From positions 47,143 to 111,142 of the IMG/VR virus record IMGVR_UViG_3300031784_000013: a stretch of 64,000 nt of DNA, one strand, 5' to 3'. Numbering within the stretch: the first letter of the stretch is position 1; each line of letters begins with the position of its first letter. Below, piece by piece: positions 1,383-62,357 of this stretch. A program made the position numbers and the translations under genes. The stretch is from a virus. The notes under the pieces were generated by a model. It was not told the DNA's origin and made no database searches. It saw only the letters and a list, made by a program, of their open reading frames with translations.

Positions 1383-2561
1383 TTAAGGAATCAAAGTGCT
1401 AGTAGTGGTAGTAGTTGTTGGAGGTGTAGAAGTTGTAGTGGTAGTAGTAGTGATACAAACATTGTTGTCAACTACAGTACCAAGAGCAGCTTCAAGAACA
1501 GCTTCAACAGCAGTAGAAATACCAGCGTTACCTGGAGTGGCAGCGTTAGGAACAGCAACAATCACCATGCTATCCTCATAGATATAATCACCCCACTGAT
1601 AAGCAGAACGGTCGTACTGATTGAACTTGATGTAATAGGTATCATAGATGGTACCAGTGGTTACATAAGTTTCAAAGTTCTCGTTGTAACCATTCATTCT
1701 GTACAAGTGCTTCAAGTAACCTGCCTGATAGCTGTAGAAGTTTTTCTCAAGTTGAGCAATTTCTTCAGCAGTACCAGTTGGGTAAGAAGCTCTCTGTACA
1801 ACAACAGGATCAGCAACAATATCACAATTGTCAGCAACAATGAAGTCAGCAGTGGTAGCAGGACCTTGGTATACGAAAGTACGGAAGTACATTCTGTCAT
1901 ATTCCCAAGGGAATGCAGCAATATCGCAAGGCTGACCATACTTGGTAAGAGGCTTACCAGAGATTCGAAGGATAGTTCCACCTACGTTCTCGAAAGTATA
2001 GAAATCAGACAATGTGATGTTGTCAGGGTTGTTACCAGGAGCAGCAAGGTTCAACTGATAGATGAACTGGTTGATCAACGCATTAGTGTTGACATCAGCG
2101 CAAGGATCAGCACCGCAATCGCAGCAAGGAGCTTGTACAGTTACAGAACGGGTGAAACCGTTGAAGTACAAGGTGTCAAGATAACTAGAATGACCTCTTA
2201 GAGTAAGGGTCACAATTTCTCCACACTGTACGTTCCAATCAGTTACATCAGTGATTTGGACAGCAGGAGTACCGCAACCTGATACTTTGTACCATTCAGT
2301 TACGTTAGATGAGCAACCAGAGCCAGAAGGGCAACCCTTGATTTTATCAGAACGCTTAGAGCCTTGTAGGTAGGTGTTTTGTCTACCTTGAGCTACATAG
2401 AAGTATGGAGCAGCAGCAATGTTAGCAGCTGTAGCCACACTGTAATCGTTTCTGAAGAAACCAACTTGACCAGCGGTTAGATCCTGTGTAGAACCAGTGC
2501 TAGGGAGCGAAGTTTGCCCTACTGGAACTACAAAAAGGGTGGTTAACGAGAAATCAGCCAT
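1383..2561 (-). CDS. Major structural protein (auxiliary capsid/decoration-like) with C-terminal poly-Thr tail
   Basis: 392 aa; downstream of MCP; followed by a terminator; ends CITTTTTTTSTPPTTTTTTSTLIP. Confidence 0.7.
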   Translation of the reverse strand: MADFSLTTLFVVPVGQTSLPSTGSTQDLTAGQVGFFRNDYSVATAANIAAAPYFYVAQGRQNTYLQGSKRSDKIKGCPSGSGCSSNVTEWYKVSGCGTPAVQITDVTDWNVQCGEIVTLTLRGHSSYLDTLYFNGFTRSVTVQAPCCDCGADPCADVNTNALINQFIYQLNLAAPGNNPDNITLSDFYTFENVGGTILRISGKPLTKYGQPCDIAAFPWEYDRMYFRTFVYQGPATTADFIVADNCDIVADPVVVQRASYPTGTAEEIAQLEKNFYSYQAGYLKHLYRMNGYNENFETYVTTGTIYDTYYIKFNQYDRSAYQWGDYIYEDSMVIVAVPNAATPGNAGISTAVEAVLEAALGTVVDNNVCITTTTTTTSTPPTTTTTTSTLIP

Positions 2562-4414: not shown

Positions 4415-5968
4415 TTAGAACTGTGGAATTTCTTCGATTAGAACAGTTCGTGACAAGTCTTCGATGAATACATCGCAACGATCTTGCATCCAGATTTCAT
4501 AGCCTGGGAATTTGTTGGCAGAAGACATACCCTGAGACTTAGCAAAGCCAAGGTGGTGTCTACGTCCATCGATATAACCCCAAGTCATAGAAGGAGCACC
4601 TTTCATTCTCACTTCACGAATGTTGTTCACCATAGAGCCATCAGACATTGGAGACACATCAAATACCATGAACACTGGAGTTGACTTCTTGTTCTGTCCA
4701 AATTCCAAGTTGGATTGAGGAAGATCAAGTTCTTTCAAGTGGATAAGTTCCACACGACCAGTTTCACGAGTAACCATTGCATCGAATGCAAAGTTATAAG
4801 TGATGTGTTGTCCTTCTCCTTGCATGTATCTGTTTCCAGAATCTGCCATGAAGGTAAGGCCAGAGTTCAATGCATCAGTTTTCAAAGCCTGCTGGAACAC
4901 GTCAAAGCCAGCTTCGTTAGTGTACATTTTCACTCGTCTGTCCTTAACATCCACACGTCTGTAGAACAAGTCTCCAAACACGGAACGGATAAGGTTTGCA
5001 GAGAATTCTCCACGGTTGTATTGTACCAAGTTACCATTGTTACGCATTCTGTGATAAACACCAGCAGATACACGCTTCAATTCTTGCTTAGATCCATTAG
5101 TTTTTACAGTGCCTGGCTTAGACCAGATCATTCGCTTCACCTTAAGTTCAAGCATTGCTTTTCTCAACATGAATTCTACGAATGGCTCCCACTTAACATC
5201 GTTACGAGTTAGAGGAAGTTGGTTTCTACGCTGAGGAGCATACACCAAGATATCAAGAGGCTTACCAGAAGCATCACGCATAGTCTTGTCATCAGCCCAT
5301 GCAGTAACTTGGTGCTCAAAACCATATCCAGAACCAAGAGATTCGAACATAGTGATTTTCTCACCAAGTCTTGGTAAACCAAGAAGGTCCTGATCAAATT
5401 CACCAATTGCAGCATCAACTAGTTCTAGTTCAATACCAATTTGCAAGAAGGTAGGGCTTACAAAGTCTAGGATTGGGTTGTCAGACACCAATGTAAAGGT
5501 GTAAAGGAAACCTGCATTCCAAGGAACTGGATCTTTTACAGCATACCATCTTGGACCATACTGACGAGAACCTACAGAAACGATAGCGTTCTTAGAGAAT
5601 TCGTTAGTGTCCAATACCACCTGAAACTCCTGACCATCGATACCTGGCTTGCTCAACTCAGCAGTGGAGCTAGGGATGTCAATGATTTTAGGGAATTTGT
5701 AAGGAACTTGAACGTCCCACTTCCAAGAATCGCTGTTGTTGTCGATGTAGTAAGGAGTGGACTTGTTGATCATATCAAGGAAGTCGTTGCTGTACAATGA
5801 GCTCTGAGTGTACAAGGAGATGATCTTCTTGTCATAGTCAGCTGGCTCAGTGGAGTGAAACGACTCCAAGTGATTTGAATCAGTTAGCTTTCCTACGGCA
5901 CGTTTGTCCATTGACGCAACGCGAGCATAGGTAAAGCCTGTTAAACCTGGGATTGTTTGAATTGCCAT
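4415..5968 (-). CDS. Major capsid protein (crAss-like)
   Basis: 517 aa; terminase-portal-scaffold-MCP gene order; followed by a terminator. Confidence 0.8.
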   Translation of the reverse strand: MAIQTIPGLTGFTYARVASMDKRAVGKLTDSNHLESFHSTEPADYDKKIISLYTQSSLYSNDFLDMINKSTPYYIDNNSDSWKWDVQVPYKFPKIIDIPSSTAELSKPGIDGQEFQVVLDTNEFSKNAIVSVGSRQYGPRWYAVKDPVPWNAGFLYTFTLVSDNPILDFVSPTFLQIGIELELVDAAIGEFDQDLLGLPRLGEKITMFESLGSGYGFEHQVTAWADDKTMRDASGKPLDILVYAPQRRNQLPLTRNDVKWEPFVEFMLRKAMLELKVKRMIWSKPGTVKTNGSKQELKRVSAGVYHRMRNNGNLVQYNRGEFSANLIRSVFGDLFYRRVDVKDRRVKMYTNEAGFDVFQQALKTDALNSGLTFMADSGNRYMQGEGQHITYNFAFDAMVTRETGRVELIHLKELDLPQSNLEFGQNKKSTPVFMVFDVSPMSDGSMVNNIREVRMKGAPSMTWGYIDGRRHHLGFAKSQGMSSANKFPGYEIWMQDRCDVFIEDLSRTVLIEEIPQF

Positions 5969-18918: not shown

Positions 18919-19118
18919 AACAGACAGCAGTAGATTGGTTATTCAACAGATTGTGGGAGACACCAAAGGATAAGTTTACTTGGCACACCATCTTAGAAGA
19001 AGCCAAGCAAAGAGAGAAGATGCAAATAGAATCGGCACATAGACACGGTGCATCTGATCTTATTCTGCATCGATACAAAATGGAACAGTATTACAAAGAT
19101 ACCTACGAAAACGAATGA
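18915..19118 (+). CDS. Hypothetical phage protein (MKQTAVDWL...AK..EK.QI family)
   Basis: Motif common in Bacteroidota phages. Confidence 0.65.
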   Translation: MKQTAVDWLFNRLWETPKDKFTWHTILEEAKQREKMQIESAHRHGASDLILHRYKMEQYYKDTYENE

Positions 19119-19318
19119 ACATCTATCTAGGACAACAAGCAAAAAGCCTATTTTATATGAGGGAAATACCTGTTGATTCAATAGGTGTATTTCAATCTCA
19201 TGTAGGTGAGTGGTTGTATTGGTATAACGATGGTTTTACCTATGACACAGGATTCGCTGATAGCGAAGCAGAAGCATTACAAATAGCAAAGAAGAACTTT
19301 AAACCTTACAAGAAATGA
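19115..19318 (+). CDS. Hypothetical protein
   Basis: Overlapping start/stop packing. Confidence 0.55.
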   Translation: MNIYLGQQAKSLFYMREIPVDSIGVFQSHVGEWLYWYNDGFTYDTGFADSEAEALQIAKKNFKPYKK

Positions 19319-19442: not shown

Positions 19443-19679
19443 ATGGAAAAGCAATTAAACACATATCAGCATTGGGTTGATATTCATTTAAGCAAAGAGG
19501 ATGCAGAAAAGTTTTTTGCCAATATGGCAAATGAACAAGATCCACTTAATCCTTCAACTCAAACAGTAGAAGATGAGTTTCTATACTCTGCATTTATTTG
19601 GGACAGATCAAATGAAGGACTTGAGTATTGGATGCGAGTCCAAAAAAATATAGAAGAGAAAAATGGCTGGGAGGGTTGA
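19443..19679 (+). CDS. Hypothetical protein
   Basis: ORF track; AFIWDRSNEGLEYW motif. Confidence 0.6.
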   Translation: MEKQLNTYQHWVDIHLSKEDAEKFFANMANEQDPLNPSTQTVEDEFLYSAFIWDRSNEGLEYWMRVQKNIEEKNGWEG

Positions 19680-20157
19680 TGACAAAGATGCAATATGGAT
19701 AGAGGCTAACTTCAAAGTTAGCTTCTACCAGCCTGAAGATTTGTTAGCAGGCATGTGGTTCATGAATAGTCTTTATCCAGGAACTGATAGAGAGTTTGTT
19801 GAATTATGGCTCCTCGAAGAGGATATTATTGAGGAAGAGTATGACAATTTTGTGGCAAAGCATGGTTTTCCTGTTGAGCCAATGGTCACACTAGAGATGA
19901 GCAATCCTGATGAACCTGATTTAATTGTGGCGTATTCGCCAGAAATAGGATGGTTGCATGAAGATGATGAGCTAAGACCATTTGACATTGATGATGCAAA
20001 CTGGATTATTCAGAACAATGATGGAAAGGTGCATATATTGATTGATGGTGAAGCATTTGATCAGGATGAAACAATCTACACTCTTACAGAGGATCAAGAA
20101 GTGATATTAAAATATTTCTTTCTTGAGGATTATGAAGAAGAAGATTTGACAGAGTAA
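19663..20157 (+). CDS. Highly acidic hypothetical protein
   Basis: 164 aa, D/E-rich. Confidence 0.65.
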   Translation: MAGRVDDKDAIWIEANFKVSFYQPEDLLAGMWFMNSLYPGTDREFVELWLLEEDIIEEEYDNFVAKHGFPVEPMVTLEMSNPDEPDLIVAYSPEIGWLHEDDELRPFDIDDANWIIQNNDGKVHILIDGEAFDQDETIYTLTEDQEVILKYFFLEDYEEEDLTE

Positions 20158-47104: not shown

Positions 47105-47231
47105 CAATTCCTGTAAAAAAATCGTGACAATTACGGAAGTTATTCGAATTACGAGGGTAAATTTTACAACTTTTTACCCTCGTAACTTTTAGATTAATAA
47201 ATTTCAAAGTCTTGTTAACTTATAAGTTAAC
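47105..47231. repeat. Second palindrome array (13-bp perfect inverted repeat; 18-bp perfect palindrome)
   Basis: TTACGAGGGTAAA/TTTACCCTCGTAA (47149-47185); GTTAACTTATAAGTTAAC (47214-47231). Confidence 0.75.
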
Positions 47232-50806: not shown

Positions 50807-51091
50807 TTATAAAATGATTTCAAATGATATTGAGCCCGTTGTCTTGATACTTTTTGAAAGATTCAATCTAATGTTATAGATGTTGTGAAACTTCAATATC
50901 TCCTCAAGTAACATTTCTATATACTTAGGATGACTAGGGGCAAGTCTGAATTGATAGGAATGTGGGTTCTTTGTTATTTGCAAGGCAGAAAGCTCATCGA
51001 TAGAGTCAATCATACCCTCTAGTCTTGCAAAGTAGATCATGTCGTTATCCTGCATGATCTCTGGAAAGAACTTTTTTACTATCTCCATCAA
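50807..51091 (-). CDS. Hypothetical protein
   Basis: ORF track. Confidence 0.6.
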   Translation of the reverse strand: MMEIVKKFFPEIMQDNDMIYFARLEGMIDSIDELSALQITKNPHSYQFRLAPSHPKYIEMLLEEILKFHNIYNIRLNLSKSIKTTGSISFEIIL

Positions 51092-51501
51092 GATAAAGTT
51101 AGCAAATATTTTGTTTTTGCAGCTTCTCCAGACAAAGCATCTGCAAGATTTGCTATGTCATGATAGCTATTAATCTCTGCGTATGACTTTAGAGAAGAAG
51201 CGTATGCCATCAATTCGCTCACCACAGCTTCAGCAGATGTAGTCATGATTGGATCAATCTTCATGGACGTAGGTCTTCTGCCTGTATAGCCCATTAGTTT
51301 CTCAATCAATCCATCTTTGAAGTCATGTACATAATCATACAAGCCACCAAGAGCTTGATGCTCTGCGTAACTTGTAGTTTGCCAATGCAACAAATGTAGT
51401 TGCTCGTGGAAGTGAGTTAGCTTAGAAGCAATGGATTCGAGAGTCATCCCTCCTCCATTGCCTTTGCTAATCATTTCCTCTGGAAATAAGGATTTTGCCA
51501 T
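51088..51501 (-). CDS. Ferritin/Dps-like four-helix protein (DUF5856-like); probable start MAKSLF
   Basis: LHLLHWQT.SYAEH.ALG..Y...D.LIE..MG...KTKYLLTL. Confidence 0.78.
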   Translation of the reverse strand: MAKSLFPEEMISKGNGGGMTLESIASKLTHFHEQLHLLHWQTTSYAEHQALGGLYDYVHDFKDGLIEKLMGYTGRRPTSMKIDPIMTTSAEAVVSELMAYASSLKSYAEINSYHDIANLADALSGEAAKTKYLLTLS

Positions 51502-51740
51502 TATCCTGCGGATGTAGTAGTTGTTGTAGTTGTTGGCGCAGCTGTAGTCGTTGTAGTTGTTGTAGGTGCAGCTGTTGTTGTAGTGGTGGTAGTTGGAGCG
51601 CAGCATTCGTATGCTGGAACCTCTACCCAATTACCCACTTTAGGCTTCTGTCTTCTTAAGATCAAGCTACCTGCTACTACACGTCCGCCACCATCGTAAC
51701 GTACGTACGCTTTCAAGTCTTTTCTGTTGTAAGCTCCCAT
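51501..51740 (-). CDS. Small protein with mucin-like (APTTTTTTTA)x3 tail
   Basis: LKAYVRYDG.GRVVAGSLILR..KPKVG.W.E...YECC then three poly-Thr runs. Confidence 0.8.
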   Translation of the reverse strand: MGAYNRKDLKAYVRYDGGGRVVAGSLILRRQKPKVGNWVEVPAYECCAPTTTTTTTAAPTTTTTTTAAPTTTTTTTSAG

Positions 51741-51752
51741 AATTTTTTACGG

Positions 51753-52769
51753 TTAATAGTTAAGGTTATATTTATTTTTCAGTTCTTTAATTTTATTTGC
51801 ATAGAACCACGTGCAATATTTTTGAGATTGCTCATCGTTTAGAATTGCATCTAGATGAGGATCTTGTGTTGGATCACCTCCGTTGTGATATTTCCCTTTG
51901 TAGAAGCAATGGTATGTTCCGTTGTGCGTAGATACAATGCCTGCATTGTGAAATAACGTATTCTCTTCAAGTCTTTCAATAGGATCAGTAGCCCAAGAGA
52001 AGTTCATTTCATTAATCACTTTTGTCTCTTGTCCTCTAAACCATAGATTCCAAAGTACTCCCCACATATCTGCACACCAGCTTTGAAATCCTGTATTCTC
52101 ATTCTCAAAGAAGTCTCTGTTCACTTTCTGTAGGTAGGTTCTGATCAATAAAGAATCATTCATAACCTTGTTCCAGAATGTAGCATCAACATCTTTGAGG
52201 AAGTATTGAGCTCCTCCTGAGTGTTCGTTGTTGTCGTAAGCCACTTGCTTATCAACACCAACCAGGCTCATCACTTCTCCAAGAATATCTCTAGTCTTGT
52301 ATTCTTCCAACTTATTTGGAAGCACATCTTTCTCTTTACTTTCAAAGTAGGTTGCATTAATATAACTATTTGTGTTTGACAAATAGCAAATGTCATCCTG
52401 TGTATAATCATCTACATTGAAATTCTTTGTGAACAACACATCAGAATCGCAATAGAATATCGCTTTGTTACTCAACTCTGGATTAGCCTTGAAGTGCTTC
52501 CACAGTGTCCAAGGTCTTAGAATTGGGATGTATATAGGTAGATATTTATCTAGCTCACCCTCATCTTGATAGAAATGAAACTCTGCTTCTGGATAGAGAG
52601 CAATAATTTGTTCCCATTTTGTGTTCTTTGCTCTATTTGTTGGAATGTAAATAAGAACAATCGCCTTATCAGAGTGTCCTATCTCTTTAAGACTTTCCAA
52701 CCACAGATGCACTTGCCATGTAAAATAAGTGTCATCTGGCTGAACGCAGATAAATCTAAGATCCTTCAT
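51753..52769 (-). CDS. GT-A glycosyltransferase resembling plant peptidyl O-glycosyltransferases (HPAT GT95 / SGT1 GT96)
   Basis: YFTWQ, YIPILRPW, FYCDSD (DxD) and SWCADMW motifs in the same order as in HPAT/SGT1. Confidence 0.6.
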   Translation of the reverse strand: MKDLRFICVQPDDTYFTWQVHLWLESLKEIGHSDKAIVLIYIPTNRAKNTKWEQIIALYPEAEFHFYQDEGELDKYLPIYIPILRPWTLWKHFKANPELSNKAIFYCDSDVLFTKNFNVDDYTQDDICYLSNTNSYINATYFESKEKDVLPNKLEEYKTRDILGEVMSLVGVDKQVAYDNNEHSGGAQYFLKDVDATFWNKVMNDSLLIRTYLQKVNRDFFENENTGFQSWCADMWGVLWNLWFRGQETKVINEMNFSWATDPIERLEENTLFHNAGIVSTHNGTYHCFYKGKYHNGGDPTQDPHLDAILNDEQSQKYCTWFYANKIKELKNKYNLNY

Positions 52770-52799: not shown

Positions 52800-52943
52800 T
52801 TAAGGAGCAGCTGTAGTAGTGGTTGTGGTGGTACTAGTGCTTAAACTAGCAGTCACCTTAATCAACTGGTCAAGCTGATTTGAGATTTGCCAAAGAAGAT
52901 TGCTCTCCTGGCTCCATCCTATTTGTTTATTTGGAATGCCCAT
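52800..52943 (-). CDS. 47-aa protein MGIPNKQIGWSQESNLLWQISNQLDQLIKVTASLSTSTTTTTTTAAP
   Basis: Hand-translated; N-terminus nearly identical to that of 52946..54130; poly-Thr tail. Confidence 0.8.
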   Translation of the reverse strand: MGIPNKQIGWSQESNLLWQISNQLDQLIKVTASLSTSTTTTTTTAAP

Positions 52944-52945
52944 TG

Positions 52946-54130
52946 TTAATAAGTTTTATTCAATATGAAAATATCACTGTATATACTGTTTCCTGTACTT
53001 GCTGCACCCCACTGAAGGGTAACATCTAACGTATTACTAATTGTTGTATTAAAGGTAGTGCTATTGACCGTGTTGAATGCAAAACCTTCAACTACACCAT
53101 TCACTGTTTTAGTATAATGGAATCCACCTAGAGTGACAATTGATGCTACACCAGCAGCCCCTAGTTGTCTAATAGTGAAATCTATATTCAAATTAAACAC
53201 ATTATTTGTGATGTTCGTAATAGGTTGAGCTCCACTGTCAAGAAAAATTACAGAACCTGACTTTACTCTAACTCTTATTGTTTGATTATTTGTAGCAGTT
53301 AGAAGTCCACCAAATACAGCTCTAAAGCTATCTCCTACAGAGAATCCATTAGCAGGAACAGTAAGAGTTCCTACACCACCATTGATCAAGCTAGTTTCTG
53401 TAGTGGTGTTAGTGATTATAGTGCTGTTTGCTGTCTGAGCAAATAGTCCATAATTTGCTGATCCTGGAAGTGTTGGTGATGTTCCTGAAGATCCGCTTGT
53501 ACCAGCTGAACCTGAAGTTCCTGATGAACCATCAAGGCCATTTAATAAAATCCAACCACTAAGTGAAGATGGTTCATTTGTATTATTATTTATGGTTGAT
53601 TGGTATGAAAATAAACCATCTATAACCATATCACCATTCATATAAGTTGTTCCCGATACATAAGCACCTTTGAATGGAGATGTTCCTGATGTCCCCCTAG
53701 TACCTGATGTTCCAGAAGTACCAGAAGATCCATCTCCACCAGCTGCTCCATCTAGGTTAACAGTCCATGAAGAATATGTTCCACTTCCTGTAACAGTAAC
53801 AGGACCACCAACCACCATTACACCAGTGTTGATGTCATAGCTTACAACTGTACAAGTTTGGTGGTTACCAACATTGTAAGTTATAATAATATCTTGAGCA
53901 GGAGTGTAAGCTAGGCCAGGTTCTACGACAATTGTTGTAGTTACACCTAATGTAAACTCAGTGGTGGAGGTAGTTCTAAATCTATCACCATCATATCCAG
54001 ATGTGCCAGACGTGCCACTAGTACCAGAAATGGTACATAGTTGACAAGAAGCTTTGTCTAACTGCTTTGATATTTGCCAAAGCAAGTTAGATTCTTGACT
54101 CCAACCAATTTGTTTGTTAGGTACACCCAT
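52946..54130 (-). CDS. Fibre/decoration protein with Gly-Thr-Ser collagen-like repeats and CBM5/12-like module
   Basis: Three (SGT)n blocks; FKGAYVSGTTY..GDMV...W module; beta-rich C-terminus. Confidence 0.7.
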   Translation of the reverse strand: MGVPNKQIGWSQESNLLWQISKQLDKASCQLCTISGTSGTSGTSGYDGDRFRTTSTTEFTLGVTTTIVVEPGLAYTPAQDIIITYNVGNHQTCTVVSYDINTGVMVVGGPVTVTGSGTYSSWTVNLDGAAGGDGSSGTSGTSGTRGTSGTSPFKGAYVSGTTYMNGDMVIDGLFSYQSTINNNTNEPSSLSGWILLNGLDGSSGTSGSAGTSGSSGTSPTLPGSANYGLFAQTANSTIITNTTTETSLINGGVGTLTVPANGFSVGDSFRAVFGGLLTATNNQTIRVRVKSGSVIFLDSGAQPITNITNNVFNLNIDFTIRQLGAAGVASIVTLGGFHYTKTVNGVVEGFAFNTVNSTTFNTTISNTLDVTLQWGAASTGNSIYSDIFILNKTY

Positions 54131-55079: not shown

Positions 55080-57245
55080 GTGATTAATATAGAGAAAAGT
55101 AGAATTGAATTCTTAGAAGAACCATTCGACCAAACTACTAGTGAGGAGGAAAAATTTAAAATCTTATACCTAGCTCCACATCTATCAACAGGTGGTATGC
55201 CATCAGTGCTACTCAAGAGAATACAAGCTTTTGAGGGACTTGATTCAGATATTATTGTTGTTGAGTATTCTAATCACAGCGATGAATACGTTGTGCAGAA
55301 GAATGAAATCAAGAAGCTTGCTACAAAGATGTACACACTTGGTGAGAACAAGATGGAGCTCATAGACATCATCAAGAGACACAATATAGATATTGTACAT
55401 GTTGAAGAGATGGTTGAGGATGGTGTCAATAACTTCCCCATAGAACTTGTCAATGAGCTCTACGATAACGACAGAACTTGGAAGATTGTGGAGACATGTC
55501 ACAATGTTTATTTCAAGCCTGACATAGAAAAGAAGTATCATCCTGATGCTTATGTGTTCTGTACACCATATCACCTACAGACATTTGAGAACATGCCTTC
55601 TCAGAAGTTTGTTCTAGAATATCCAATAGAGAATAAAATTCCGTCAAAAGCAGAAAAGCTTTATGAAAAGATTATGCTTGGTATGGACCCACAGAAGAAG
55701 CATGTACTAAACGTAGGACTGTGGACACAAGGAAAGAATCAGGGAGAAGGTGTTGAGATAGCAAGACAACTTCCTGATATGGAGTTTCACTTTGTAGGAA
55801 ACCAAGCAATCAACTTCAAACACTATTGGGAACCATTGATGGTTGATCTACCAGCTAATGTACATGTGTGGGGAGAACGTAGTGATGTTGATAAGTTTAT
55901 GACAGCCTGTGACATCTTCATGTTTAACTCTACATGGGAATGCAATCCGTTGGTTGTTCGTCAAGCAGCTAGTCATGGTTTACCAATACTAGCAAGGGAT
56001 CTTCCTCAGTATTGTGGAATGTTTGATGATTGGATTACGCCCTTGAAAGAAGATGATGTATTGAATCAACTTCTATCAATCACCGCACCAACCAAGAAAC
56101 CAATTAGCGAAGCACTATTTAACTTCAAGGTGGCTCAGATGATGATTTATAATGCCGTCTTCACTAATGATATGATGCTTCAGAAGATGAATCTAAATTT
56201 CAACTTTGTCAGACAACCGTTTCTAGAAATCACTGGTAGATCAAATAAAGAATACAGGACAAAGTTCTATGATGAAAACGACATTTGTCTCTACGAGAAT
56301 ACAATAAAAGCAAATCATTGGGTGAAGGCCAATAGACAGTGGTTTACAGAATGGAAGGTCAAAGTGTGGGAGAATGACAAACTCATACATGATTACAAGC
56401 TTGACTATACTGATCAACGTGTCTACATATCACTAGAAAGCTCTTCTCTAGGAGATAGCATAGCGTGGATTCCGTATGTAGAGGAGTTCAGAAAAAAGCA
56501 CAACTGTCATGTTATTGTCAGCACGTTCAAGAACTTCTTGTTTGAGAGTGTGTATCCAGAGCTAGAGTTTGTTGAGCCTGGAACAGTGGTGAATAACATC
56601 TTTGGAATGTATTTGATAGGATGGTTTTACGATAGCTCTAGAGAACCAGTGGAACCAAACACTATTCCTCTACAGAAGGCAGCTACAAACATCTTAGGGC
56701 TTGAGTATAAAGAGATTAAGCCTAGGATTGCACACACTGTTTGTAACAAATTTGATAATAAATTTGTTACAATCGCTACCAACTCAACAGCTGGTTGTAA
56801 GTTCTGGACTAGAGAAGCTTGGCAAAAATTGATTAACTATCTCACTGCAAAAGGATACAGAGTGATCAATGTTTCACTAGAGGACAACCCATTTGAAAAC
56901 TGTGAACCTTTAGAAGACAAATCGATGCAGAACACTATGGATGCTATTGCCTGTAGCCAATTCTTCATAGGACTATCTAGTGGACTGTCATGGTTAGCGT
57001 GGGCACTCAATGTTCCTGTTGTAATGATTGCAAACTTCACAGAAGACAATCATGAGTTTGAGTGCATACGAGTGACAAAAAAGAATGTGTGTCACGGATG
57101 CTGGAACAGCTCTAAGTACAGATTTGATAAAGGAGACTGGAACTGGTGTCCTGTACACAAGGGTACAGATAGAATGTTTGAGTGTCAGACAAGCATAGTT
57201 GCAAGTGATGTGATCAGTTTAATTGAAGATCACTCACTTGTCTAG
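55080..57245 (+). CDS. GT4-like glycosyltransferase fused to Aah/TibC-family (autotransporter) protein O-heptosyltransferase
   Basis: N-half PHLSTGGMP...K.Q...SxWECNP (GT-B); C-half SSLGDSIAW catalytic-Asp motif, FIGLSSGLSWLAWA, and four Fe-binding-type Cys in CHGCW...WNWCP...FEC. Confidence 0.85.
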   Translation: MINIEKSRIEFLEEPFDQTTSEEEKFKILYLAPHLSTGGMPSVLLKRIQAFEGLDSDIIVVEYSNHSDEYVVQKNEIKKLATKMYTLGENKMELIDIIKRHNIDIVHVEEMVEDGVNNFPIELVNELYDNDRTWKIVETCHNVYFKPDIEKKYHPDAYVFCTPYHLQTFENMPSQKFVLEYPIENKIPSKAEKLYEKIMLGMDPQKKHVLNVGLWTQGKNQGEGVEIARQLPDMEFHFVGNQAINFKHYWEPLMVDLPANVHVWGERSDVDKFMTACDIFMFNSTWECNPLVVRQAASHGLPILARDLPQYCGMFDDWITPLKEDDVLNQLLSITAPTKKPISEALFNFKVAQMMIYNAVFTNDMMLQKMNLNFNFVRQPFLEITGRSNKEYRTKFYDENDICLYENTIKANHWVKANRQWFTEWKVKVWENDKLIHDYKLDYTDQRVYISLESSSLGDSIAWIPYVEEFRKKHNCHVIVSTFKNFLFESVYPELEFVEPGTVVNNIFGMYLIGWFYDSSREPVEPNTIPLQKAATNILGLEYKEIKPRIAHTVCNKFDNKFVTIATNSTAGCKFWTREAWQKLINYLTAKGYRVINVSLEDNPFENCEPLEDKSMQNTMDAIACSQFFIGLSSGLSWLAWALNVPVVMIANFTEDNHEFECIRVTKKNVCHGCWNSSKYRFDKGDWNWCPVHKGTDRMFECQTSIVASDVISLIEDHSLV

Positions 57246-57440
57246 TCCATACTTAATCCACTTGTACCAGATTCTCTCATGAATAAAGTATTGCAGGGGT
57301 TTCCATAGTAATTCAACTATGCTAAACCCTGCACTTACAGATATCGATCCTGTAATAAACCACATTGCACAGAAGCCAATGGCTGTACTAATTATTCTGT
57401 AGCTTATAGTTTTGGCAATGTGTCGTTTATAACTTACCAT
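57234..57440 (-). CDS. DUF2061 small membrane protein
   Basis: RH.AKT.SYR...K...YF.HER.W. Confidence 0.8.
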   Translation of the reverse strand: MVSYKRHIAKTISYRIISTAIGFCAMWFITGSISVSAGFSIVELLWKPLQYFIHERIWYKWIKYGLDK

Positions 57441-57813
57441 CTTTTCTCATCTGTTCTCTAATCTCTGTTGCAGATATGGCTTTAACTTCCTCTGGGGGAA
57501 CATGTTCTATTACATCATAACCAACACCTCTACCAATATTGATTGATTCAATGTTAGGTATTTTCATAATGCTAAGCTTACCAGATTCAACTAGATCCTT
57601 TAACTCAACAGACAAGTTAATAAGTATCTCTTGTGCTGTCCAAGGATTTCTTTCATCTACAGGAACATCTCTTATACATAGCAAAACTTTCTTGTCTTCA
57701 TTTAAAGCTTGATCAATTAGCCATCTGTGTCCTGTGTGCCAAGGTTGCCATCTACCAATGAACATTGCCCATTCTCCTGATTTGCCAGAAGCTTTTGCCA
57801 ATAAGTTTTGCAT
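57427..57813 (-). CDS. HxGH nucleotidyltransferase (cytidylyltransferase-like / minimal ATP-sulfurylase candidate); probable start MQNLL
   Basis: FIGRWQPWHTGH; GRGVGY; ISATEIR. Confidence 0.75.
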   Translation of the reverse strand: MQNLLAKASGKSGEWAMFIGRWQPWHTGHRWLIDQALNEDKKVLLCIRDVPVDERNPWTAQEILINLSVELKDLVESGKLSIMKIPNIESINIGRGVGYDVIEHVPPEEVKAISATEIREQMRKDGKL

Positions 57814-58556
57814 ATAGTTAACGCTGTTTTTAATGAATGTTGAGGTGCCCATCCAGGCATCCAATGTCTTGGATCACTACATGTGTAGAATTGATATCCT
57901 TCTGGTATAACTGACGCATCATGATAAGTGTATTCAATCCCTAATGCTTCTGCAATATATTCAAAGCTATGTGCAGCTCCAAGTCCCACATCATATTTAT
58001 TTCCTGAAACAACATCGTAATGTGCTAAGGCATAGAGGTTAGCAGATATTATATCCTCTACATATACGAAGTCACGCTTAGGTTCACCAGGAAAAAGTTT
58101 AGCACTTCCTGCTTTCATCATTTGATAAGCCATAGATGACATTGCACCTTTGTGCTCTTCTCCTGGCCCATAGACATTAAAGTATCTAAGAGCTACACCA
58201 CCATTACTGATTACATATTGCTCAGCTACATACTTACTCCAACCGTATAGATTAGATGGATGACTACCATTAATTCCATAGGATGCAGCAGAAGAAGAAT
58301 ATACGATGGGTTTTCTATTCAGCTTACACCAGTCTGTTAATAGCTTTGTAGATTCAAAGTTGACAGTCATCATGTAGTTGACATCTTTCTCTAAAGTGTT
58401 TGAGCATGCTCCTACATGAAAAACAACATCTGGTTTGTGCTCGTCTAACCATTCAATTGTAGCAAGTGCATCTTCATTAATCTCTAAAGGATTGTCGAAA
58501 TGCATCTTTAGGTTACCCCCTATGAAACCATTAGTTCCTGTGATTAATACTTTCAT
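57717..58556 (-). CDS. hldD: ADP-L-glycero-D-manno-heptose 6-epimerase-like SDR
   Basis: TGTNGFIG, FHVGACSNT, YSSSAASYG, YGWSK, LRYFNVYGPGEEHKG.M.S, YQFYT. Confidence 0.88.
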   Translation of the reverse strand: MKVLITGTNGFIGGNLKMHFDNPLEINEDALATIEWLDEHKPDVVFHVGACSNTLEKDVNYMMTVNFESTKLLTDWCKLNRKPIVYSSSAASYGINGSHPSNLYGWSKYVAEQYVISNGGVALRYFNVYGPGEEHKGAMSSMAYQMMKAGSAKLFPGEPKRDFVYVEDIISANLYALAHYDVVSGNKYDVGLGAAHSFEYIAEALGIEYTYHDASVIPEGYQFYTCSDPRHWMPGWAPQHSLKTALTICKTYWQKLLANQENGQCSLVDGNLGTQDTDG

Positions 58557-59299
58557 GGTGTGCTCACGCCTCGTTTAGATACAACAATAGAACACATCTC
58601 GTTAGCGAAGGTGATGGAGTTTGCAATATCTTCCCCTTGTAAATATCTTACAGCAAACGCTGCAAGGAATGTATCTCCAGCTCCTGATACATCTATTGTT
58701 TCTTTTGCTTGTACAGGATAGAGAGTGTTCATATACTTAGCCCCTTTGTTTCCTAGTGTAGCAATCATCTTTGATAACAGCACTACTTCACTGGTTTGAT
58801 TCTTGTTAAACTCTTCCTCGTTAAGCTTGACAAATGTGTAGGCTAGAATTGTTTCTGGAGACAGTTTCTTTTTTGTATCTAGAAAACTTTTATCAGCAAG
58901 TGTGGCTATTTCATAAAGCATTTCTTCTGTAAGGAAGCCTTTGTTATAGTCAGACACAATTACAGCATCAGCCTGTTTGATTAATTGTTTCCTACTTTCT
59001 GTTAGCGTGAACTGTGACATAGTTTCATACTCTTCCTCATCCACTCTAAGAAACATGTGATTGCTCGACTTATCTACATACCTGGTCTTCACTATCACTT
59101 CTTGCTGATGAATACAATCAATCTCATATTCATTTGTAATAGCCTTTATGTTTCTTTCAACATTACCAGCCATTCCTTTTGACACATGTTTTTCTATAGG
59201 TGTGAATACAGGAACAGGAGCTTCAGGACTTAACCTTTTGCATTCTCCGTAAATAAAAACATCGTGACAGAGTTCACCTATTACTACTATCTTTTTCAT
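58553..59299 (-). CDS. hldA: D-glycero-beta-D-manno-heptose-7-phosphate kinase (RfaE domain I)
   Basis: RLSPEAPVPV, GMAGNV, KTR, SDYNKG, DVSGAGDT. Confidence 0.9.
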   Translation of the reverse strand: MKKIVVIGELCHDVFIYGECKRLSPEAPVPVFTPIEKHVSKGMAGNVERNIKAITNEYEIDCIHQQEVIVKTRYVDKSSNHMFLRVDEEEYETMSQFTLTESRKQLIKQADAVIVSDYNKGFLTEEMLYEIATLADKSFLDTKKKLSPETILAYTFVKLNEEEFNKNQTSEVVLLSKMIATLGNKGAKYMNTLYPVQAKETIDVSGAGDTFLAAFAVRYLQGEDIANSITFANEMCSIVVSKRGVSTP

Positions 59300-59675
59300 A
59301 TTCTAGTATTGATGTAGTGGACATGTTATCCACCCTATCGAAATATATAATCTTTGGTATAAACTCAGCTCCTACAATTCTTTTACCCTTGTAATCAGAG
59401 CCAATGACCATTGCATCTGGTTCATACAATCTAATCTGTTCTACTAGTTCCTCCTCACTGTCAAACCCCACAACATCATTTACAAAACGTAGAGATGTTA
59501 GGAATTCTTTTCTGTGATTAAAACAGTTAAAGGGTCTTGTAGAACCCTTTAGCTTCTTTATCCTATCGTCTGCATCTATCCCCACTCTAACATGTCCAAT
59601 GCTTGATGCATGTTGCAATAGCTTCAAGTGTCCTATGTGTAACACATCAAATGCTCCATTCACCCATATCTTCAT
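59274..59675 (-). CDS. hldC: Heptose-1-phosphate adenylyltransferase (RfaE domain II)
   Basis: NGAFDVLHIGH, KLKGSTRP, GSDY, STT. Confidence 0.88.
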   Translation of the reverse strand: MKIWVNGAFDVLHIGHLKLLQHASSIGHVRVGIDADDRIKKLKGSTRPFNCFNHRKEFLTSLRFVNDVVGFDSEEELVEQIRLYEPDAMVIGSDYKGKRIVGAEFIPKIIYFDRVDNMSTTSILEYEKDSSNR

Positions 59676-59974
59676 ATCTCTTCTATCCGTTTTGTTTTAT
59701 CACAGATGAGTAAGTCATAGGATGGTTTGTGGTTCATGATCACCTCACTATACTTACAGTTCCAGTCGCTAAGCTGTTTCACTGTCAAACTAGTGTGGTC
59801 AATTTTAGATGATTGTCCTCTAGCAGTCCAGTAAACTATCTTATGCCCCTCATCGAATAAAGCATTAATCTTATCAATGTTCTCTAGTATAGGAGTGGAG
59901 TGTTGATAGTTGCTTCCTTGCGTGTGGCAGATGGTACCATCTATGTCTACATAAATAACTAATCTCCCTTCCAT
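59672..59974 (-). CDS. Small HAD-family phosphatase
   Basis: YVDIDGTIC, WTARG, KP.YD..ICDK. Confidence 0.8.
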   Translation of the reverse strand: MEGRLVIYVDIDGTICHTQGSNYQHSTPILENIDKINALFDEGHKIVYWTARGQSSKIDHTSLTVKQLSDWNCKYSEVIMNHKPSYDLLICDKTKRIEEI

Positions 59975-60348
59975 ATCCTGTAGCTATCTGAATCAAAGTG
60001 CTCTGTGCTCACTTCAAATATCTCCCCATCTTCCAATGCCTCTAGTTGATGAGGAGTTCCTGGATGTTGTGTTACAACATCCCCAAAATTCAAGTAAGTA
60101 ATATGAGTCACTCCTTTTTCTGTATCTATCCAACGATAGATGAATGTTCCCTTATTGACATACCAGGTTTCTTGCTTAAGTATGTGATAGTGCATTGAGA
60201 ACTTACATCCAGCTTTGAACACTAATATCTTTCCACAATACTTTTCAGAATTGTGTATGATGAGTTCATGTCCCCAACCTTTGGGTATTTTGCATTCAGA
60301 GCACTCGTGAACGTTTTTGATTGACATACTGATTGACTTGTTTAACAC
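59959..60348 (-). CDS. Cupin sugar-isomerase-like protein (mannose-6-P / D-lyxose isomerase-like)
   Basis: KGWG.E, YCGK, SMHYH..K.ETW, PH, EVST.H.D.DSYR. Confidence 0.8.
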   Translation of the reverse strand: MLNKSISMSIKNVHECSECKIPKGWGHELIIHNSEKYCGKILVFKAGCKFSMHYHILKQETWYVNKGTFIYRWIDTEKGVTHITYLNFGDVVTQHPGTPHQLEALEDGEIFEVSTEHFDSDSYRIWKGD

Positions 60349-60739
60349 ATTCTTCTACTAACAGATCTGATGTATTTAAAGAGAGGGCATTCTCTTCCAA
60401 TAAATTTAATTCAAAATCTTTAACATGAAACTGTTCTCTACCCCTAGTATCATCGTAGTGTAAAAATACCCAGGCTACATCTTCAGTAAGGCTATTAAGA
60501 TAGTCTCTAGCTTCTTTATATGGATAAACAAGAGACAAGGTAACATCATCTTCTTGACTGTTTAAGTAGTGGGCGATATCACTCGCTCTATTTAAATTTT
60601 TAATTCGTCCCTCTCTACTGTAATCTTTATTAGCAAATAACTCTCTAAGCTCATCACCATCTATGTTTTTGTACGTAGAGAATTGCTTTGCTAATGTTGT
60701 CTTTCCACTATGTGGTTGACCAAAAAAAACAAGTATCAT
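60296..60739 (-). CDS. cysC: Adenylylsulfate (APS) kinase-like
   Basis: GQPHSGKTT, IDGDELR, DYS.EGR..N. Confidence 0.75.
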   Translation of the reverse strand: MILVFFGQPHSGKTTLAKQFSTYKNIDGDELRELFANKDYSREGRIKNLNRASDIAHYLNSQEDDVTLSLVYPYKEARDYLNSLTEDVAWVFLHYDDTRGREQFHVKDFELNLLEENALSLNTSDLLVEECVKQVNQYVNQKRSRVL

Positions 60740-61536
60740 GGTATAATGTGATTAAATTCTTCAAATTTTTCTTTAGGGATGCATGCACAGTCAAGACATT
60801 TACCACTCTCTGTTTGATATGGTATACCTTCTTGAAATTGTTTTACTACATATCCTAATGATTCTATCTTAGCTTTTAGTTGTTCTCCTGATGTTCCTTG
60901 TTCTTTGAGTAAGTGGTCTTCAAACTCTATGAACATGTAAGGTCTATGTTTATTAATAGTTTCTTTAGCACCATCAATAACACGCGATTCGTATCCTTGC
61001 ACATCTATTTTTATAAATGCAATGTCATTAAACGTATAACTATCCAAAGTTCTTTGCTGAACTGTGTCTCCTTCATAGTTACCAACTCTTACATCTCCAA
61101 AGTTAACTTCTTGTTTGCTGTGGTAGTCAGGAGTCTGTATAATAACTTCTTCATCAATACCATCTCCAATTGCTAAATTATAGCAATATACATTGTCTAA
61201 TCCATTAAGGAATACATTAGAACACAATTGATAATAGATGATGCGTTGTGGTTCAAAACTAAACACTCTACCATGGTCACCAACTAAATGAGAGAAGTCT
61301 ACAGCAAAGTTACCATTATTAGCTCCTATATCAATAATATCTTTCCCTTCACAATCTATTTGATTTCTATCAAGGAAATCAAACATATACTTCTCATACT
61401 GCCACCCCTGTATAATAGAACTTGTTACAGCATTATCATTAGGAAATAATGCATACGTTAGTCTATTAGTCTGAAAAGCATTTTTAAAGTCCTTTTTATC
61501 AAGTTGATATAAGCCTATTTGAAACTTTGTTTTCAT
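60736..61536 (-). CDS. FkbM-family methyltransferase
   Basis: IDIGANNG, SFEPQ, IKIDVQGYE, RP...IE. Confidence 0.9.
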   Translation of the reverse strand: MKTKFQIGLYQLDKKDFKNAFQTNRLTYALFPNDNAVTSSIIQGWQYEKYMFDFLDRNQIDCEGKDIIDIGANNGNFAVDFSHLVGDHGRVFSFEPQRIIYYQLCSNVFLNGLDNVYCYNLAIGDGIDEEVIIQTPDYHSKQEVNFGDVRVGNYEGDTVQQRTLDSYTFNDIAFIKIDVQGYESRVIDGAKETINKHRPYMFIEFEDHLLKEQGTSGEQLKAKIESLGYVVKQFQEGIPYQTESGKCLDCACIPKEKFEEFNHIIP

Positions 61537-62357
61537 TACTTGCTGTATCTAAATCGATCGTAGAACCATTTATAATTAGTGTAAATCCAATCTGTAACAT
61601 CCTTACCTAATAGTTGTTTAGCTTTAGAAGGAACAGGCTCTAATTTAGTTCTGATAACATGATCACCAAATGTACCATACACCTCATCATCTTCTTTTGT
61701 TACCTGCTCTATATTATCAAAGTCATGTTGGAAATGAGGTATTTCTAAGTATCTATATATCCTCATCATCTCTGTATCAGGGTATAGGCAAAGGTCTTCA
61801 AATTTTACAAACAACATCTTGCTATCTAGGCCCATTCTAAATATCTCAGAAAGTCTTTCAAAAGCTAGTCCTACAGGAGGTTGCTGTGCCCAGATATCTA
61901 TTCTCTTAGGAACTGTTGTTCCTTGTCCTTTAGACCAATCTAATATATCAGATTGTTTCTCTGGGTGCTTTCTAAAGTTATTCTCCATAGAAGCAAATAT
62001 ATCACGTGGATCTCTCACCATACATATAATCTTTGGATCTTCTCCTTGTACAAACTTCAGGAAGTCATAATGTATCCCCCATCCTCTACTCTTATCTACA
62101 ACATATTTCTTATGTGTAATAGCATTGTAAAAAGCGTCCATACCAGCTTTAGCAAAAGCTTGCCAACCTACTTTCATCAGCTCAACATCTTGTGCTTTAA
62201 ACTCAGGAGAATTAGTATAATTTGCACGTGCTCCAAATATAAGTTCAAGGACACCACTTGTAGGTGTAGCATATACATCAGGGTTTTGAGCCAAGATGTT
62301 TTGCAATAATGTGCTTCCAGCTCTAGGTAGAGAACTTTGGTAAAATATTTTATCCAC
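61536..62357 (-). CDS. Sulfotransferase
   Basis: LPRAGSTLL 5'-PSB loop; DKSRGW; VRDPRDIFAS 3'-PB; FEDL. Confidence 0.9.
   Translation of the reverse strand: MDKIFYQSSLPRAGSTLLQNILAQNPDVYATPTSGVLELIFGARANYTNSPEFKAQDVELMKVGWQAFAKAGMDAFYNAITHKKYVVDKSRGWGIHYDFLKFVQGEDPKIICMVRDPRDIFASMENNFRKHPEKQSDILDWSKGQGTTVPKRIDIWAQQPPVGLAFERLSEIFRMGLDSKMLFVKFEDLCLYPDTEMMRIYRYLEIPHFQHDFDNIEQVTKEDDEVYGTFGDHVIRTKLEPVPSKAKQLLGKDVTDWIYTNYKWFYDRFRYSK

Follow-up and report, generated by a model that had tools for sequence, protein, structure and literature searches.

A predicted GT-A glycosyltransferase encoded beside poly-threonine proteins in phages as a candidate threonine O-glycosyltransferase of virion proteins

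The locus considered here lies in a 64,000-nucleotide stretch of viral DNA (hereafter the window), which is the right-hand 64 kb of IMG/VR record IMGVR_UViG_3300031784_000013 (positions 47,143 to 111,142; record total 111,142 bp, estimated 96% complete). Its central gene encodes a candidate threonine (Thr) O-glycosyltransferase of 338 residues and is flanked by open reading frames (ORFs) for two mini-proteins with Thr runs, namely mini-protein A (47 residues, upstream) and mini-protein B (79 residues, downstream). The genes of a collagen-like fibre protein, mini-protein A, the enzyme and mini-protein B were found on one strand with gene gaps of 2 to 30 nt; 30 nt separated mini-protein A from the enzyme and 12 nt separated the enzyme from mini-protein B. 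Promoter and terminator scans of the locus gave signals that were not above those of shuffled sequence. According to the preliminary description, both neighbours end in TTTTTTTAAP. This was accurate for mini-protein A, which closes with S-T-S-T7-AAP and a double stop (TAA TAG), but mini-protein B contains T7-AAP twice and finishes with SAG, its C-terminus being AP-T7-AAP-T7-AAP-T7-SAG. The Thr codons were mixed (ACC/ACT/ACA/ACG) in both mini-ORFs, hence the runs are not a DNA microsatellite. Furthermore, the mini-ORFs are real genes, because their N-terminal modules were conserved in approximately 75 related viral loci while the tail length varied.

The upstream-type ORFs of the relatives shared a module of about 30 N-terminal residues with the motifs KQIGW and NLLWQISKQLE, and the downstream-type ORFs shared a module of 47 N-terminal residues ending in YECC. 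Either module was followed by poly-Thr and then by a stop codon or by C-terminal domains that varied and were 60 to 600 residues long; in other words, the architecture consisted of an anchor, a Thr stalk and an optional distal domain. The module of mini-protein B had 14 invariant positions in 47 residues (alignment A2, 31 sequences), and its AlphaFold2 model showed a small beta domain at residues 8-42 with a predicted local distance difference test (pLDDT) score of 82-85, whereas the Thr tail was predicted to be disordered. The module of mini-protein A was common to the N-terminus of the adjacent fibre protein (88% over 26 aa), which matched Pfam Collagen below the cut-off (6.4e-5) and phrog_1806, "collagen like minor tail" (1.4e-3). 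Pure-Thr runs of four or more residues in the related loci were exactly seven residues long in 183 of 320 cases, and these T7 runs were usually spaced by two or three residues ending in Pro. The peak in distant phages was at 6-7. This quantisation of run length could be an enzyme footprint or a structural repeat. Thr runs with a length of exactly seven occurred nine times in the 111-kb genome, each time in a minus-strand ORF; the probability of a T7 run is about 1e-8 per position for a residue at 6-7% frequency, and the runs cannot be due to chance. Moreover, at least five further poly-Thr proteins were encoded on the minus strand of the genome, with lengths of 1877, 727, 188 and 160 residues and a 392-residue head-module protein whose gene adjoins that of the major head protein. 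In the 1877-residue ORF (genome approximately 33.5-39.1 kb, upstream of the window), there were ten Thr/Ser-rich tracts, including one of 43 residues, and Cys-containing segments often flanked them; the product may be a giant mucin-like fibre.

The motifs YFTWQ (residues 15-19), YIPILRPW (80-87), DSD (108-110) and WCADMW (231-236) were present in the enzyme in the order originally described. The full length of the protein matched the profile of phrog_4417, a PHROGs family annotated as "unknown function" (E 2.6e-54, residues 5-330 on profile positions 2-291 of 293). The models of Pfam, NCBIfam and PADLOC gave no match to the enzyme (in Pfam nothing at E<=1), and sequence searches of solved structures were empty for both the single protein and a 75-sequence profile. 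The family comprised 1292 proteins in 90% clusters and 780 representatives at 50% identity, 258 of which scored E<=1e-30. D108, D110, H274 and K291 were invariant among 75 family members (alignment A1). The AlphaFold2 model built from this alignment had a pLDDT of 97.3 and a predicted template modelling score of 0.94. Its Rossmann-like alpha/beta/alpha nucleotide-sugar domain aligned with solved GT-A glycosyltransferases (GTs) across most of the chain, and D108-S-D110 followed a central beta strand (103-106). The top Foldseek matches in the PDB were all GT-A enzymes: glycogenin, XXYLT1, the catalytic domain of UGGT and alpha-1,3-galactosyltransferase. The structural comparison thus confirmed the proposed GT-A fold with a DxD motif. 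These four are retaining DxD enzymes, and several of them modify proteins. No signal peptide, membrane segment or N-terminal hydrophobic segment was detected in the sequence or the model. Judging from the model, the protein is a soluble cytoplasmic GT-A glycosyltransferase of the uncharacterised phage-borne family phrog_4417, probably metal-dependent via the DxD motif and probably retaining, as in GT8.

The relationship to known retaining families was nevertheless distant. The enzyme shared 8-12% identity with GT8-type GT-A enzymes (glycogenin, LgtC, GlyE), GT77 AgtA, GT24 UGGT and GT6, and its chain was about 80 residues longer than in this group, with helical inserts. The Pfam GT8 model (Glyco_transf_8) did not match the enzyme, and for the 75 relatives no GT8 family was among the 25 listed families of a total of 29. 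GT8 enzymes have a C-terminal H-x-x-G-x-x-K motif, in which the His is the third metal ligand and is accompanied by the Lys. H274, G277 and K291 were conserved in the present family, but at the level of the motif their spacing exceeded that of GT8. Longer relatives carried fused GT2, GT6, GT32-type, Methyltransf_24 or radical-SAM/SPASM domains, an architecture typical of multi-step glycan builders. A poly-Thr tract was present in none of 150 representative enzymes, indicating that enzyme and substrate are not fused.

The enzyme had also been labelled as plant HPAT/SGT1-like, i.e., as related to the hydroxyproline O-arabinosyltransferases (HPATs, GT95) and the peptidyl-serine galactosyltransferase SGT1 (GT96). 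As a statement of family membership, this label was not borne out. The Pfam HPAT model (PF23452, cut-off 23.9 bits) found no match in the enzyme, in its genome or in ten phage records bearing homologues, and no weak HPAT signal was detected in ten short, divergent relatives. A true but divergent membership in GT95/GT96, with phages and bacteria holding the prokaryotic root of the HPAT/SGT1 lineage, is considered unlikely. PF23452 gave sub-threshold matches in 3 of 75 relatives (E 0.012 or worse) and was still the most frequent Pfam family in the scan of these 75, and 22 of the 30 nearest named clusters of the ESM Atlas (scores 0.96-0.97) had PF23452 on 10-58% of their members. By these weak and language-model signals, HPAT is the nearest named Pfam family, and the motif order agrees with that given for these plant families in the preliminary description; the sub-threshold matches and the language-model neighbours serve as a lead only. 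On the other hand, HPATs are Golgi type II membrane proteins and the founders of GT95, which is related to GT96 (PMC8012813), whereas the phage enzyme has no anchor, its chain opening with a beta strand at residue 4, and would act in a cytoplasmic setting. The acceptor would also differ, being Thr instead of hydroxyproline or Ser; the candidate acceptors here had Thr runs and no Pro runs. The fold search returned the GT-A matches given above, with no GT95 or GT96 structure among them. Hence, the fold comparison cannot decide this kinship, and GT96 is not thereby excluded. The likeness would be one of task, in that both enzymes would O-glycosylate repetitive hydroxy-amino-acid tracts of structural proteins.

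The linkage of the enzyme to poly-Thr genes was evaluated in close and distant relatives. In a close set of 80 related loci from viral contigs (enzyme identity 63-94%), poly-Thr ORFs lay directly upstream and downstream of the enzyme in nearly all cases. In tblastn searches, the enzyme was detected in 77 of 50,697 isolated-phage records, all at less than 60% identity, with hosts in Lactobacillus, Enterococcus, Staphylococcus, Lactococcus, Clostridium, Lacticaseibacillus, Levilactobacillus, Arcanobacterium and Chryseobacterium. Ten distant records were viewed (identity 25-33%), and in eight of them the structural gene directly upstream of the homologue, encoding a capsid, tail-tube or other structural protein, bore a homopolymeric Thr/Ser tail or linker. 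Hosts represented among the relatives that lay beside poly-Thr-tailed capsid, tail-tube or fibre genes were Enterococcus, Lactococcus, Lacticaseibacillus, Clostridium, Staphylococcus, Arcanobacterium and Chryseobacterium. The tail of the tail-tube protein of Enterococcus phage phiFL2B had 23 Thr/Ser residues; Lactococcus phage 1706 had T10-HHD on the tail tube and T9-HHD on the capsid/protease protein; Lacticaseibacillus phage R9.1 had T7-SHV on the capsid and T9-SHV on the tail tube. A Thr/Ser tail or linker was likewise present upstream of the homologue in phiCTP1 (gp18), TPWB06, vB-SscS-F1 and Semele, and MA9V-3 had Thr linkers in fibre-like proteins. Two phages differed: the upstream Ig-like protein of 521B terminated in (TTV[KA]P)n, and in Planchet the upstream capsid protein was tailless and a tail-tube protein with a Thr-rich end was encoded 1.7 kb downstream. 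The linkage predicted for homologues thus held both in the close loci and in distant phages of other host phyla. The occurrence of the family in unrelated phages only beside Thr-tailed head, tail or fibre proteins indicates that the enzyme probably coats virion proteins with sugar.

In each of three phages, the Thr runs of the capsid and tail-tube proteins were followed by an identical tag (SHV in R9.1, HHD in 1706 and SHA in R3.3), which suggests a terminal signal that is common to both proteins and specific to the phage. In TPWB06 (18921..19187) and vB-SscS-F1 (19548..19925), the tail-tube protein ended in T9-P and was followed by a short ORF made up almost entirely of T6-T9 blocks spaced by KP or QP. 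The short ORF of TPWB06 overlapped the tail-tube gene in a different frame, and by analogy with SPP1 gp17.1* these ORFs may be frameshift extensions.

Two tail-tube families allowed phages with and without the enzyme to be compared. In the SPP1 gp17.1-type family, phiFL2B, phiFL2A and R3.3 had both the enzyme and a Thr tail, whereas the tail-tube proteins of six enzyme-free records (Streptococcus GBSVK-C, Javan505 and Javan235; Lactobacillus Silenus and phiJL-1; SPP1) stopped right after the conserved core. Absence here denotes that no homologue was found anywhere in the record, positive controls being matched in the same type of search. In the 1706-type family, phage 1706 had the enzyme together with its T10-HHD tail. 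Among phages of this family without the enzyme, the tail-tube proteins of Giantsbane and FP_oengus ended where the Thr tail would begin, and those of Count and Nadmeg had an Ig-like extension in its place. For the two families together, the tail was present in all four phages with the enzyme and in none of the ten without it, corresponding to roughly three independent gains. In other words, within these families the enzyme gene was linked to tagged virion proteins and the tag occurred only with the enzyme, which is the pattern expected of a virion-glycosylation system. The homologue of phiFL2A was split in two frames (pieces of 249 and 86 residues, one internal TAA), as the result of a sequencing error or of a natural knock-out; the Thr tails on the capsid and tail-tube proteins of this phage were intact.

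Taken with the linkage, these two contrasts make a phage Thr-O-glycosyltransferase encoded beside its substrates the best reading of the locus, as the preliminary description had proposed, with the correction that the substrates would extend beyond the two neighbours. It is rather probable that the enzyme O-glycosylates poly-Thr tags on virion proteins, and as a functional inference from sequence comparison this is well supported. Several points weigh against it. Because the phages of the 80 close loci are related, the synteny of these loci does not count as independent evidence, and the contrast sets were small, hand-picked and limited to the few gains mentioned. Furthermore, viral contigs were scanned for at least nine consecutive ACN codons, and in the sample of loci obtained, 58 had a run of T9 or longer within an ORF of 60 residues or more, some of the matches being giant-virus or spurious frames. 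A family member was present in the fetched DNA of five of these loci, always 156-233 bp from the tract, and the remaining 53 had no enzyme in the flank examined. Most of the sampled poly-Thr loci were thus without the enzyme, which shows that the tracts do not require it. The enzyme travels with poly-Thr and the converse does not hold; the other tracts may be served by other enzymes or may be bare. In addition, the basis of the retaining assignment is the fold neighbours alone, another protein glycosyltransferase in the same genome could be the initiating enzyme (see below), and the literature searched contained nothing on the enzyme family. It also contained nothing relevant on poly-Thr tails of phage proteins or on glycosylated capsid or tail proteins in these phages.

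The abundance of poly-Thr loci without the enzyme is what would be expected if the tracts were flexible linkers without modification, or spacers prone to slippage, and the role of the enzyme were unrelated to them, and Thr-rich linkers are common in secreted bacterial proteins. However, the terminal tails of the mini-proteins and the capsid and tail-tube tags have nothing distal to them and hence are not linkers, tails were gained only with the enzyme in two protein families, and the run length peaks sharply at seven; bare linkers are accordingly regarded as very improbable. The same abundance would fit a non-protein acceptor (host envelope polysaccharide, teichoic acid, lipid or phage DNA), with the poly-Thr adjacency marking a variable fibre region only, and many GT-A fold neighbours work on glycans or lipids (LgtC, WbbM, LARGE1). 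Such an acceptor is improbable, because several phage lineages that are unrelated to each other have the enzyme inside head and tail modules, immediately following a capsid or tail-tube gene, the presence/absence contrasts couple it to the tails, and it has neither a signal peptide nor a membrane segment nor a PADLOC match.

Other glycan genes were found close to the enzyme. A gene on the opposite strand, 2.3 kb away, encodes a GT4/heptosyltransferase fusion that scored 262.7 bits against TIGR04414 (equivalog cut-off 200) and also matched Pfam Glycos_transf_1 and Glyco_transf_9. By sequence, it is possibly a second protein glycosyltransferase or a glycan extender. The following gene group contains an HldD-like epimerase, an HldE kinase domain, cytidylyltransferase-like proteins, a HAD phosphatase and a cupin, and then an APS kinase, an FkbM methyltransferase and a sulfotransferase. 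Hence, the phage can probably make heptose donors and tailor glycans, and together with the fusion the group resembles a phage-encoded gene set for making glycans that are heptosylated, methylated or sulfated. The Aah/TibC O-heptosyltransferases (TIGR04414) are likewise cytoplasmic protein O-glycosyltransferases on repetitive Ser/Thr sites; they differ from the enzyme in fold and family (GT9-like), and the likeness concerns the gene 2.3 kb away. It is conceivable that this heptosyltransferase initiates on the Thr tracts and that the GT-A enzyme adds only a later sugar. The score above the equivalog cut-off and the ADP-heptose gene set within 6 kb would agree with such an order, as would the fused GT-A relatives, whose extra GT domains show that multi-step glycans are made. 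By contrast, small phages of Gram-positive hosts had the GT-A homologue beside poly-Thr proteins and no other glycosyltransferase annotated by the depositors in the parts viewed (phiFL2B, 8.8 kb; 1706, phiCTP1 and R9.1, about 31 kb each), which favours the GT-A family as sufficient for initiation. Moreover, the poly-Thr co-occurrence tracked the GT-A family and not the heptosyltransferases. Initiation by the heptosyltransferase is thus given little likelihood.

If the GT-A enzyme is the initiating one, it would move a sugar from a nucleotide sugar onto the Thr hydroxyls of disordered virion-protein tracts late in infection. The target tracts would be T7 blocks with spacers of two or three residues, commonly xAP. 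The acceptors would include both flanking mini-proteins, each a Thr stalk on an anchor module. At least five more poly-Thr proteins would serve as acceptors as well, among them the 1877-residue protein and the head-module protein. The first sugar could then be extended or decorated by the GT4/heptosyltransferase fusion and the products of the ADP-heptose, methyltransferase and sulfotransferase genes, which would give the particle a mucin-like brush of glycans.

In the mycobacteriophages Che8, Corndog and Myrna, glycosyltransferases encoded by the phage modify its capsid and tail-tube proteins (Freeman et al. 2023, as summarised in PMC12363180). Experimental knowledge of particle glycosylation by phage enzymes is confined to a few mycobacteriophages, whose virions are thereby shielded from antibodies (PMC12363180). 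Che8 gp108 combines a GT with Methyltransf_24, as do some fused relatives of the present enzyme. Homology to Che8 gp108, gp109 and gp110 (GT2 plus methyltransferase, GT2-like and GT25, respectively) was rejected, the hhalign probabilities against the enzyme family being 0.06-0.9%, i.e., below 1% for each. The Che8 glycosyltransferase genes lie at the far genome end from the structural genes, whereas the enzyme here adjoins its candidate acceptors, and a poly-Thr tail is absent from both the capsid and the tail-tube protein of Che8. With another enzyme family and another acceptor, the present system would by analogy work like that of the mycobacteriophages by different means. The chlorovirus PBCV-1 protein A064R represents capsid glycosylation in a eukaryotic virus, with N-linked glycans and without a poly-Thr tag.

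A more general idea, which is offered tentatively and is somewhat less than evenly likely, is that poly-Thr serves as a portable glyco-tag, with the GT-A family reading disordered T7-type tracts on any protein and perhaps being the prokaryotic sister of the plant GT95/GT96 enzymes that glycosylate extensins. In that case, the addition of Thr runs would be enough for phages to make any capsid, tail-tube or fibre protein mucin-like, in hosts from Bacillota, Actinomycetota and Bacteroidota as well as in uncultured aquatic hosts, and the flanking mini-proteins would be stand-alone glycan-bearing hairs with an anchor and a stalk. Virion glycosylation by this enzyme would represent a second, unrelated phage family of virion-glycosylating enzymes with a simple acceptor tag readable from sequence, and phrog_4417, at present annotated as "unknown", would be renamed "virion protein glycosyltransferase". 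For phage therapy and dairy phages, the finding would bear on the surface chemistry of the particles, their recognition by the immune system, their adsorption and their adherence to mucus, and a short genetically encoded tag for cytoplasmic O-glycosylation could be of use in biotechnology. Members of the family are present in phages that have been cultured on Enterococcus, Lactococcus, lactobacilli, Staphylococcus and Clostridium.

The coordinates of the features are given in Table 1. A megablast search of isolated phages with 15 kb of this DNA gave zero matches, and the sole isolated relative was distant, a Leptolyngbya phage with a capsid protein at 26% identity.

Table 1. Features of the window discussed in the text (positions are those of the window).
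Feature	Position	Strand	Length	Remarks
Head-module protein, further candidate acceptor	1383..2561	-	392 aa	C-terminal T7-S-T-PP-T6 tail
Capsid, portal and terminase genes	4.4-12 kb
Major head protein	4415..5968
Dps/ferritin-like DUF5856 protein	51088..51501	-		phrog_858
Mini-protein B, candidate acceptor	51501..51740	-	79 aa	47-aa N-terminal beta module ending YECC, three T7 blocks
GT-A fold, DxD glycosyltransferase (phrog_4417), candidate Thr O-glycosyltransferase	51753..52769	-	338 aa
Mini-protein A, candidate acceptor	52800..52943	-	47 aa	Anchor module (residues 1-26) and Thr tail
Collagen-like fibre protein	52946..54130	-	394 aa	G-T-S repeats; N-terminal anchor module as in mini-protein A
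GT4 domain and Aah/TibC-type protein O-heptosyltransferase fusion	55080..57245	+	721 aa
Sugar-nucleotide and glycan-tailoring genes	57427..62357	-

The ATG of the DUF5856 gene overlapped the stop codon of mini-protein B (TAATG), and a 180-residue TTG frame, a longer listing of the same gene, is probably not the actual gene. A Dps-like protein was also encoded in Lactobacillus phage 521B, approximately 16 kb upstream of its enzyme homologue.

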